Shown here piece after piece: positions 59,700-61,560 of a stretch of 64,000 bases of DNA (the first letter of the stretch is position 1; each line of letters opens with the position of its first letter). A model generated the notes under the pieces. The model saw only the letters and a list, made by a program, of their open reading frames with translations. It did not search any database and had not been told where the DNA came from. The DNA comes from Escherichia coli phage vB_EcoM_Shy. Made by a program: the position numbers and the translations under genes. The stretch lies in the sequence record MT833282.1, one strand, 5' to 3'.

Positions 59700-60110
59700 T
59701 AAGGCTACTGCCATCCTTCCATACCAAACCCTACCGAACAGAACCATGCTTTGCCATACTGGACAACACCTGACCAGACATCACTTAAAAACCCTTTTCA
59801 AAGACTCTTAAGTGATGTAATCGAATTTTAATGTAGCTCCGATTAACTACCCATACCTTGCATTACTTCACCAAACCGTACATTACTTCACCAAACCATA
59901 CATTACCAGACCATGCCACACCTGTCCAAACTCAACCTCATTAAAAGACCCTCTTTAAAGACCTTTTAATAAGGTAAGTCTCATTTTAATGTAGCTGAGA
60001 CTAACTACCCATACCAGACCCTACCTTACCAAACCAGACCTCACCCTACCCCACCATACCGTATACTACCTCATTAAAAGACCCTGTTTAAAGACCTTTT
60101 AAAAAGGAGC
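59700..60110. repeat. G-poor (C/A/T-rich) intergenic module, copy 1
   Basis: tandem 21-bp units CATTACTTCACCAAACC(G/A)TA, ACC-rich tracts, two copies of the hairpin motif ending TAACTACCCATACC (59819-59857, 59978-60015) and TTAAAAGACCCT(C/G)TTTAAAGACCTTTTAA; related copy at 61250-61560. Confidence 0.65.
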
Positions 60111-60134
60111 CTCCGAAGAGGCTACCCAGTCAAC

Positions 60135-60575
60135 TTAGAAAGGTTTTCTGCGTTGCTTGTTAATGTTAGCTTTCATAGCAGCTAAATGGTTTTGCTGTTC
60201 AATCAGTCGTGAACGTTCTTGATGGCTAAGTGCCATAGTGTTCACATTCTCAATCGCTTGAGTAGCTTGCTTTAAAGCACGACCAATCTTACCAGACATT
60301 TTACGTTTTGCAATAGTTGCTTGATGCTTAGGTTCGACAACACGATAACCAACACCCATTGAAGCAACCAGATAAATCTTCTCTTCTTTAAGAAGCTTCT
60401 CAATAAACTTCTCAAGTCGGTTTAGACGTGTAAGTGCATAAGCCTTCATTTCATCTTCGTACTTAACAATGTCGCCTTGATAAGTTGGCTTCACAATACC
60501 TAAGAAGGTGTCCATCTCAGAATGTGATACAGTGTCACCGTAACTAAACTTTGCTGCTAATGCTTTTGTATTCAT
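60135..60575 (-). CDS. hypothetical protein
   Basis: 146-aa basic ORF between the two G-poor modules. Confidence 0.5.
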   Translation of the reverse strand: MNTKALAAKFSYGDTVSHSEMDTFLGIVKPTYQGDIVKYEDEMKAYALTRLNRLEKFIEKLLKEEKIYLVASMGVGYRVVEPKHQATIAKRKMSGKIGRALKQATQAIENVNTMALSHQERSRLIEQQNHLAAMKANINKQRRKPF

Positions 60576-60577
60576 AA

Positions 60578-61180
60578 TTAAACGTTACCTTCTGAAATAA
60601 CTTCTACAGAAAAACGACCAAAGCGTGGACGCCAATCACCTACACCACAAAGGTTACCAGCATTTTCCAGAACCATCAGGAGTTCCTCTCGTGTGATTTG
60701 CTCTTCATCGAACATCAAACCGAACTCTACAGACCAGTCACGGAAGATTGGACGGTAGCTCATAACTCGTGCTGTACCAATCTTAACAGACTTAGCATAG
60801 ATAAAGTCTGGATTCTTAGCAAGTTCTTGTGGGTTTGCTGGACAGTTCTTGATAGTCATTGGGAAGACTACATCTGTCAGCATAATGGCTCGGTCAATTA
60901 CCTTACCAAGTTTGTTGAGTTTTGCACCAGACTTGATGCAAGCCTCAATCATCTCACCGTTCATAACAAAACCTAGTTGCTCATCGTAGTAACAAGAAGT
61001 TACCAGTTGGCTTTCTGCTAAGAGCGCATAGTCTTCGTCAGTCTTTTTACGTTTACTGGACAGAGACTTGTGATATTTTGTCAGAGGATTTAACGGGTCT
61101 GACAACGTATCGTTATGGCTCAGGAAAGGACGAGTACCAGTGATTTTGATATTTAACAGTTTCATAGCATTTAGCTCCAC
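60578..61180 (-). CDS. hypothetical protein
   Basis: 200-aa ORF coupled to the downstream gene. Confidence 0.5.
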
Positions 61181-61249
61181 ACTTTAGTTGATTGTTAAGT
61201 TGTTTGTAAAGAACCCTCAACAGAAGACTCTTTAGAAACTTGGTAGATT

Positions 61250-61560
61250 TTTAACGTGGCTACTACCATCCACCCATACCGTGCCACACCACACCGGACT
61301 ATACCATGCCCAACCCTACTACACCAGACCTTATTAAAAAACCCTCTTAAAGACCTTTTAAAAAGGTAAGTCTCATTTTAATGTAGCTGAGACTAACTAC
61401 CCATACCTTACCGCACCGGACATTACCGGACCGCACATCACCGCACCAAACCAAACATCACATTACCTGACCTCACCGCGCCTTACCATACCTCACTTAA
61501 AAACCCTCTTAGAAGACCCTTAAGTGATGCTGGTGAGTACCCGTTGGTTTATGCTGCTCA
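61250..61560. repeat. G-poor (C/A/T-rich) intergenic module, copy 2
   Basis: shares AAAGACCTTTTAAAAAGGTAAGTCTCATTTTAATGTAGCTGAGACTAACTACCCATACC (hairpin 61370-61393) and ACC-rich CACCGCACC tracts with copy 1. Confidence 0.65.

Follow-up and report, generated by a model that had tools for sequence, protein, structure and literature searches.

Positions 59639-61587 on the minus strand of a 64,000-nucleotide stretch of Escherichia coli phage vB_EcoM_Shy (record MT833282.1; this whole stretch is the window below) almost certainly form a type II VIPR locus of the SUSP1 clade, complete with the genes for Vipr and Vap1 and five guide RNAs, the vrRNAs. It is with high confidence not a new system, as both the kind of locus and its mechanism are known from two preprints of 2026. 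VIPR, for Viral Interference Programmable Repeat, has as its model Escherichia phage SUSP1, a relative of Felix O1, and consists of the minimal RAMP protein Vipr, an accessory gene, vap, and flanking intergenic vrRNAs (bioRxiv 10.64898/2026.04.26.720920, June 2026, Doudna laboratory). According to that preprint a vrRNA has 9-16 YNNGG repeats as a rule and no fewer than 4, in which GGY (Y, pyrimidine) is conserved and NN hypervariable, followed by a 3′ tail with a pseudoknot, and SUSP1 has one vrRNA upstream and three downstream of its two genes. Pairing is between the NN dinucleotides and double-stranded DNA, with every third base of the latter skipped; the complex silences transcription, and the natural targets lie in a satellite phage, with at least 80% as the criterion for a match. 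Cryo-electron microscopy shows one Vipr protomer per repeat with GGY sequestered and the pseudoknot as a 3′ cap, and filament assembly and R-loop growth both run from the 3′ end to the 5′ end (10.64898/2026.04.26.720927). In SUSP1 the vrRNAs are expressed, Vipr co-purifies with them and the complex represses transcription of its target (10.64898/2026.04.26.720920 and.720927).

The minus strand of the vB_EcoM_Shy locus carries five units, two upstream (U1 and U2) and three downstream (D1 to D3) of the two genes. Each is made of a hairpin, here termed HP-A, then 11-18 GGYNN pentamers in strict register, and then a conserved 34-nt tail that forms a pseudoknot of stems S1 and S2. In order of transcription the parts are as follows.

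61494..61526, minus strand: HP-A type I (CACUUAAG...UUAAGUG, 14 bp, with G-U pairs) before U1, present in both the minimum-free-energy and the centroid structures
61403..61492, minus strand: guide of vrRNA U1, 18 repeats, NN code AT AA GC GA CA AA GA TT TT GC GA GC CC AA CC GC AA AT
61369..61402, minus strand: 3′ tail of U1, type B1, S1 GUAG/CUAC, S2 AGUCUCA/UGAGACU, A-rich loop 3
61334..61364, minus strand: HP-A type II (UUUUUAAAAGGUCUU...AGGGUUUUUUAA) between U1 and U2
61276..61330, minus strand: guide of vrRNA U2, 11 repeats, NN code CT GT AG TG AT AT CC GT GT AC AT
61242..61275, minus strand: 3′ tail of U2, type C2, S1 GUGG/CCAC, S2 GGUAG/CUACC
61208..61233, minus strand: HP-A-like 11-bp hairpin (AAAGAGUCUUC-UGUU-GAGGGUUCUUU) in the 5′ untranslated region of vipr
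60074..60102, minus strand: HP-A type II before D1
60011..60070, minus strand: guide of vrRNA D1, 12 repeats, NN code AG AC AT GG AG GA CT TT AA AG CT AT
59977..60010, minus strand: 3′ tail of D1, type B1 pseudoknot
59941..59969, minus strand: HP-A type II before D2
59853..59937, minus strand: guide of vrRNA D2, 17 repeats
59819..59852, minus strand: 3′ tail of D2, type B2 pseudoknot, S2 AAUCGGA/UUCGAUU, its stem unlike that of B1 and its loops alike
59782..59814, minus strand: HP-A type I before D3
59721..59780, minus strand: guide of vrRNA D3, 12 repeats, NN code CT CA GT CC AT AA AT TC TC AG TT AT
59687..59720, minus strand: 3′ tail of D3, type C1 pseudoknot, S1 AAGG/CCUU, S2 GGCAG/CUGCC

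The register is unbroken from hairpin to tail in all five arrays, successive GGT triplets on the minus strand being always 5, 10 or 15 nt apart. This period is not a matter of chance, because the 25 windows of the 64 kb with the strongest period-5 signal for ‘CC’ are all located in the two modules that flank the genes. A family set assembled from the window and 30 related loci comprises 83 units with 65 unique arrays of 9-19 repeats, and in the latter the first three positions carry 1.01 (G), 1.64 (G) and 1.34 (Y) bits of information and the two N positions just 0.09 and 0.11 bits. Among 828 array pentamers 542 begin with GGT, 53 with GGC and one with GGA. Across phages the modules are 60-80% identical and Vipr is 97-100% identical. 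Within D2 a stretch of 20 nt, or four pentamers, is tandemly duplicated (59861-59906; 2.3 copies with 96% matches by Tandem Repeats Finder), which suggests that slippage in 5-nt steps, in keeping with the register, lengthens the arrays.

The tail variants are all 34 nt long, align without gaps and fall into four types and one satellite type. Their common structure is an H-type pseudoknot, S1 joining columns 3-6 to 17-20 and S2 joining columns 9-13 to 30-34; 98.5% of the cells are paired and eight of the nine pairs show compensatory change, with controls in which the partner was slid reaching at most 41%. The HP-A hairpins have 11-14 bp with several G-U pairs, on account of which they can form in the minus-strand RNA only, and their predicted folding is robust. 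They come in two sequence types, border every guide array and are candidate processing or insulation signals of multi-guide precursors; no discussion of them was found in the available parts of the two VIPR preprints.

A sequence-only reading of this region had described two related, strand-asymmetric modules with a conserved hairpin on either side of a two-gene cassette, and every motif that it listed is present where it was placed. On the plus strand TTAAAAGACCCTnTTTAAAGACCTTTTAA is at 59948-59976 and 60076-60104, with a variant shorter by one base at 61335-61365, and hairpins with the loop TTTTAATGTAGC, whose stems differ and are complementary, are at 59819-59852, 59977-60010 and 61369-61402, each followed by TAACTACCCATACC. 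The modules are related, as 59700-60110 and 61250-61560 have in common repeat families of 117 nt (four copies) and 85 nt (four copies) at 61-81% identity; the count of two gives way to the five units above. Plus-strand G is indeed nearly absent from stretches (no more than 6 per 100 nt at 59837-59972 and 60000-60105), and this does not extend to the whole modules, which have 10-13% G and 30-34% C, the window having 20% and 19%; the asymmetry arises because on the strand that is transcribed GGY takes up three bases of each pentamer. The tandem unit reported as 21 bp has a period of 20 bp, that of the D2 duplication. A conserved loop with variable stems is there, though not as a plain hairpin, since the stems are S2 of the pseudoknot, and the ‘loop’ contains the 3′ strand of S1 and the A-rich third loop. 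The modules do flank the genes, the open reading frames (ORFs) 60135-60575 and 60578-61180 lying between them. Of the suggested regulatory and structured-RNA elements of leftward transcripts, structured minus-strand RNA is borne out by the G-U hairpins and the compensatory changes in the tails, and regulatory sites are not. The organizing pattern, minus-strand GGT with its strict period of 5 nt, was absent from that account.

Elsewhere on the plus strand of the window there is one low-G stretch (no more than 6% over 100 nt) at 14793-14901, and low-C stretches by the same measure are at 10578-10681, 16020-16168 and 55649-55785; none of these has a period-5 signal.

The two proteins agree with the RNAs in pointing to VIPR. 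Vipr of vB_EcoM_Shy has 195 amino acids, of which 190 (97%) are identical in SUSP1 Vipr, and the profile of its family matches PDB entry 36pp, ‘SUSP1 Vipr protein’, with E=1.4e-79. Its AlphaFold model has a mean predicted local distance difference test score (pLDDT) of 95.7, with Cmr4 and Csm3 as the best structural matches, and on this model Vipr is a minimal RAMP of ~22 kDa with a predicted fold closest to the Cas7-type RAMPs of CRISPR systems. Vipr proteins of this kind are small (~20 kDa), with a single RAMP domain that has an RRM core, a glycine-rich loop and a thumb; the C-terminal G-rich loop here has the invariant residues G170, G174, R179 and G183. The residues reported to contact GGY (H17, E71, M72, R138, C173, D177, W178 and R179) are all at the same positions here, and by alignment with the published list the five differences from SUSP1 are all away from them. 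Vap1, with 146 amino acids, is identical to SUSP1 Vap1 at 145 of them (99%); its single-sequence structure model is poor (pLDDT 68). Neither protein has a match in Pfam, NCBIfam or PADLOC, and the PHROGs matches of the cassette proteins are to families of ‘unknown function’ only. No Cas match was found in the first three of these databases among the two cassette proteins and two neighbors, nor did repeat searches, including Tandem Repeats Finder, reveal a CRISPR repeat-spacer array at the locus. Because the modules encode guide RNAs that are used by the RAMP protein of the cassette, genes and modules are one functional unit.

What the guides would be directed against is a satellite resident in E. 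coli chromosomes. When the locus was compared by blastn with 5,426 complete E. coli genomes, a short vrRNA-like sequence was found in 148 chromosomes, within an element of ~11 kb that is bounded by serine-recombinase genes (for example at 19200-29850 of the extracted chromosomal locus L034) and that fits the satellite of the first preprint (10.64898/2026.04.26.720920). It is inserted at three sites, beside wrbA, at a DUF72 gene near yecN, and between yciI and tonB, and its genes include those for a tape-measure protein, a baseplate protein and an HNH endonuclease; E. coli D10, EC12 and S40 are among the strains that bear it. The satellite has a vrRNA of its own, with a C2-like tail and a covarying stem GUCG/CGAC, and has no vipr; this single vrRNA is without HP-A and has its own promoter and terminator. 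The guides of satellites match other satellites (that of L036 at 22 of 22 positions in L035, 12490-12521) and not the window.

The NN codes of the five guides were scanned, with skips of 0-3 nt, against nine satellite loci from E. coli chromosomes (L033-L041; 255 kb, both strands), which sample nine of the 148 satellite-bearing genomes. Four of the five match the satellite at 82-92%, exclusively with a 1-nt skip and with all four sites inside the element; for skips of 0, 2 and 3 nt none of the five has a match above 0.75. The predicted sites are these.

D1: 21 of 24 positions at L035 13499-13533, a non-coding region of the satellite, with 19-20 of 24 in three other satellites; site AAGACCAGAGGTAGTGACCTGTTAAACAGGCTGTT
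D3: 21 of 24 positions at L037 14878-14912, in the first ORF of a satellite operon, and also in L039 and L041; site CTACAGAATCCAATGAAAATATCATCAAGCTTACT
U2: 18 of 22 positions at L038 18650-18681, in the satellite tape-measure gene
U1: 22 of 24 positions for the 12 tail-proximal repeats, nine consecutive ones being perfect, in the satellite tape-measure gene; site ATAGACTCTTTAGCTGAAGCACCGAAACCAGCAAA

When the order of repeats was shuffled, none of 200 guides reached the observed score for D1, none of 200 for D3 and two of 200 for U2. In the two ORF-borne sites checked by coordinates, that of D3 among them, the skipped bases are the wobble positions of codons. The last repeat of the arrays, GGTAT, is constant, and since it never matches the target it probably belongs to the tail. 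The limitation of the U1 match to tail-proximal repeats fits a filament that, as reported, is assembled starting at the pseudoknot. Family-wide, 39 of 68 unique phage guides match the nine satellites at 90% or more with the 1-nt skip, none does so with skips of 0, 2 or 3 nt, and no shuffled guide does. The published 1-nt-skip code is thus independently replicated. A shorter core of U1 was also found in IMG/VR, in three satellite-like proviruses and one GC-rich contig. The latter is a 10-kb viral contig from a metagenome (L048), matched by the U1 core at 22 of 24 positions (3639-3673); either this match is due to chance, or skipping of the wobble base lets one guide match a conserved peptide motif of tape-measure proteins across different GC contents.

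A G/U-rich RNA of period 5 could in principle be something other than a guide, for instance a cis-regulatory leader or a sponge for a ring protein like TRAP or CsrA, or else part of a replication origin with R-loops or G-quadruplexes. The 5-nt period does recall the spacing of TRAP binding sites, and a strong promoter is here followed by a G-rich and C-poor transcript beside replication genes. The conserved triplet, however, is GGY and neither the GAG/UAG nor the GGA that such proteins would call for, neither a sponge nor an origin needs NN information that matches foreign DNA, and the adjacent protein is a Cas7-like RAMP. Moreover Felix O1 is able to replicate although most of the region is missing from it, and in Kolesnikvirus relatives all of it is missing. 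The probability of these readings is close to nil. Three further candidates were discarded as they leave the target information in the NN positions unexplained: a C-rich antisense Rho-utilization (rut) site, T7-type primase sites (GGGTC/TGGTC) in the hairpins, and Chi-like GT-rich recombination hotspots.

Several observations weigh against a functional VIPR locus in vB_EcoM_Shy. D2 has no target in the nine satellites, nor do de-duplicated versions of it, and for the six 5′ repeats of U1 the satellites scanned hold no match; no guide has a perfect match in the nine, the range being 82-92%, and the match of the U1 sub-window was found post hoc. Scans of IMG/VR for exact NNx patterns yielded nothing with sub-patterns of U2 and U1, as was also the case with two sub-patterns of D2. 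No promoter was detected downstream of the strong vap1 terminator and before the three downstream guides. Expression, processing, ribonucleoprotein formation and silencing would all be taken over from SUSP1, and both source papers for VIPR are preprints. In the available parts of these preprints the over-long U1, the duplicated D2 and the transcription of downstream guides past the terminator were not found addressed. Some of these points would suit a locus that is VIPR by descent and in this phage has since decayed or fallen idle, with guides that have ceased to direct silencing: no guide fits a satellite perfectly, D2 is duplicated and without a target, and U1 with its 18 repeats is longer than the 9-16 reported. 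Decay is nevertheless highly improbable, given that both ORFs are intact with all the reported RNA-contact residues, that neither the promoter nor any of the five pseudoknot tails is damaged, and that the 82-92% of four guides is above the preprint's criterion of at least 80%, with just nine of the 148 satellite-bearing genomes sampled. The window itself has no self-target, the best match with a 1-nt skip being 0.71. The likely role of the VIPR locus is to silence a satellite that parasitizes the phage.

All genes near the locus are on the minus strand, and these and the transcription signals are as follows, again in the order of transcription.

61595-62734, minus strand: DNA ligase gene, the first in transcription order
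61560..61587, minus strand: sigma-70-type promoter, TTGACA-16 nt-TATACT, 11 of 12 consensus matches, right after the ligase stop codon
61532..61571, minus strand: inverted repeat GGTGAGTA...TACTCACC, visible in the sequence itself, which spans the -10 box and the start of transcription
60578-61165, minus strand: 195-amino-acid ORF, vipr, after the ligase gene
60135-60575, minus strand: 146-amino-acid ORF, vap1, after vipr
60103..60123, minus strand: intrinsic terminator AGCCUC-UUCG-GAGGCU with U-run, following vap1
59639..59686, minus strand: 19-bp AT-rich hairpin with U-run, overlapping the promoter TTGACA-17 nt-TATTTT of the 127-amino-acid gene
59211-59594, minus strand: 127-amino-acid ORF, after vap1
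58705-59034, minus strand: helix-turn-helix (HTH) regulator gene, after the 127-amino-acid gene

The ORF that the modules flank spans 60578-61180, and the true start of vipr is probably the ATG at 61165. The promoter at 61560-61587 is presumed to start the upstream transcript of pre-vrRNA, vipr and vap, and the inverted repeat across it is possibly an operator, for example for the HTH protein of 58705-59034; both are conserved in FO1a, REP6 and SUSP1. The U-run of the terminator after vap1 doubles as the 5′ arm of the HP-A that follows. The hairpin at 59639-59686, whose loop contains the -35 box of the promoter of the 127-amino-acid gene, is the probable end of the vrRNA transcript. Downstream of the HTH regulator gene are those for dihydrofolate reductase and thymidylate synthase. 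The ligase ORF has 379 amino acids from its first ATG here and is annotated with 366 in wV8, FO1a and SUSP1; in some relatives the ligase gene and the vrRNA promoter are separated by an additional small ORF or by ~190 bp of further sequence. Public annotation of both modules is limited to ‘DR_4’ repeats, ‘repeat_region’ or predicted promoters and terminators, and the modules are not described in the available parts of the Felix O1 genome paper, the UAB_Phi87 paper or the Bas63 essentiality preprint. In Rfam tRNA is the sole family found in the window, with no other family reaching the gathering score and chance snoRNA matches at E>3 as the sole remainder; the tRNA genes, 24 of them, are clustered at 27041-32118 on the plus strand, opposite to that of the locus genes.

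Megablast with 59600-61600 places vB_EcoM_Shy among the Felix O1-like phages (Felixounavirus), with 230 phage records matched and the best 95% identical; almost throughout they are Escherichia, Salmonella or Shigella phages of the Felix O1 group, that is Felixounavirus and close genera. The module is present in the 230 records and vipr, at 90% identity or more, in 117 of about 230. Phages momo and SME50 are nearly identical to vB_EcoM_Shy at this locus. More distant relatives of Vipr are found in Pseudomonas, Gordonia, Mycobacterium and Listonella phages. Felix O1 (FO1a), EC6, radambza and VpaE1_ev78 have neither vipr nor vap1, the order there being ligase gene, promoter, type I hairpin, one array, C1 tail and next gene, and the cassette is therefore variably present, as the sequence-only reading had surmised. 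In Kolesnikvirus relatives the whole region is missing, with no module at the corresponding position. The single array of radambza is D3 of vB_EcoM_Shy save for one base, which is the product to be expected if the two type I hairpins, one preceding U1 and the other D3, had recombined, and these two copies of HP-A are the likely partners in loss of the cassette.

These facts are also the best case for taking the modules as passive repeated DNA, scars or hotspots of recombination around a mobile pair of genes with no function as RNA: the cassette is in only about half of the related phages and is missing from Felix O1, and the radambza unit is the last unit of vB_EcoM_Shy joined to the first hairpin. 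Mere substrates of recombination would not be expected to keep a strict GGY period with free NN positions, nor a pseudoknot maintained through compensatory changes, nor NN codes that match satellite DNA under one skip rule, and passive repeats are accordingly extremely improbable. Recombination between the scaffolds is real and secondary to their role as guide RNAs. What remains of the proposed recombination-mediated insertion is recombination between scaffolds, to which the radambza array testifies; the idea of passive flanks falls, and insertion is not needed. On sequence comparison the repeated scaffolds mediate gain or loss of the cassette, and the comparison gives no direction.

By the same comparison about half of the Felix O1-like phages, Felix O1 included, appear to have lost vipr and vap1 and still keep an orphan vrRNA, with promoter, intact hairpin, GGYNN array and pseudoknot tail (3498-3602 of the FO1a locus L004, and loci L042-L044). 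The orphan guides have at least three different codes, and against the satellites that of radambza still matches (0.91) and that of Felix O1 does not (0.70). It is conceivable, though we think it rather unlikely, that the orphans function without vipr in cis, either with Vipr from a co-infecting relative or as decoys for the Vipr of a rival, and that the HP-A hairpins are dedicated processing signals. The borrowing of Vipr would parallel the vrRNAs of the satellite, which has no vipr and must borrow it. No discussion of orphan guides in vipr-less phages was found in the parts of the two VIPR preprints that were available. The satellite locus of ECONIH5 is a remnant ridden with insertion sequences and has no guide targets.

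How the locus would work can be carried over from SUSP1 because of the near-identity (97-99%) of the two systems. Leftward transcription would give vrRNAs of ~100 nt, each with GGYNN repeats and a 3′ pseudoknot. Every repeat would be bound by one Vipr protomer and a helical filament would build from the pseudoknot end, with GGY flipped out and buried in the protein so that the NN dinucleotides alone are presented. These would pair with DNA of the form NNxNNx, and the resulting R-loop or triplex would block transcription, with no requirement for a protospacer-adjacent motif and with no cutting. For vB_EcoM_Shy itself, guides U1, U2, D1 and D3 would be aimed at the ~11-kb E. coli satellite, and the HP-A hairpins may punctuate the multi-guide precursor.

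The interest of VIPR is that RNA reads DNA in a distinct manner, with a gapped dinucleotide code on a Cas7-like filament; by one proposal CRISPR effectors descend from it, and as a programmable silencer it is very small. The locus described here adds no new kind of system. It provides a purely computational, independent replication of the code with the guides of another phage, shows that many, though not all, members of the well-known Felix O1 group carry the locus, and exposes loose ends, among them orphan guides, punctuation hairpins and over-long or duplicated guides. A reading of the raw sequence alone sufficed to pick it out.

The comparison with SUSP1 is one of close likeness. The loci are collinear (promoter, hairpin, array, tail, two genes, terminator, three arrays), with the same gene pair placed, in both, between the genes for DNA ligase and the 127-amino-acid protein, and they have in common the promoter, hairpins, terminator, tail types, GGYNN architecture, 1-nt-skip code and family of satellite targets. 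SUSP1, a Suspvirus, differs in having four guides (1 + 3), whereas vB_EcoM_Shy, a Felixounavirus, has five (2 + 3) with other NN codes, two of its arrays, with 17 and 18 repeats, being above the reported range and one, D2, holding an internal duplication of 20 nt.

The likeness to class 1 CRISPR-Cas systems, with Cas7, Csm3 or Cmr4 on CRISPR RNA, is in the RAMP fold, in one protomer for each fixed step of the guide with periodic flipping of bases, and in a variable guide part capped by a conserved structured handle. In contrast, the step there is 6 nt with one base flipped, and in VIPR 5 nt with three bases hidden; CRISPR pairing is contiguous, and the information in a VIPR guide is not, a skip of 0 giving background matches only; and VIPR is encoded by a virulent phage. 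Lytic phages that carry CRISPR-Cas against satellite-like islands are an example of the systems that serve in conflicts between phage and satellite. With these VIPR shares a lytic phage whose RNA guides are directed at a chromosomal element having tail genes in common with the phage, and it differs in that its effector is a single small RAMP that silences without cutting. A further difference from known phage-versus-satellite systems is that the satellite targeted by VIPR carries vrRNAs itself, with no vipr.

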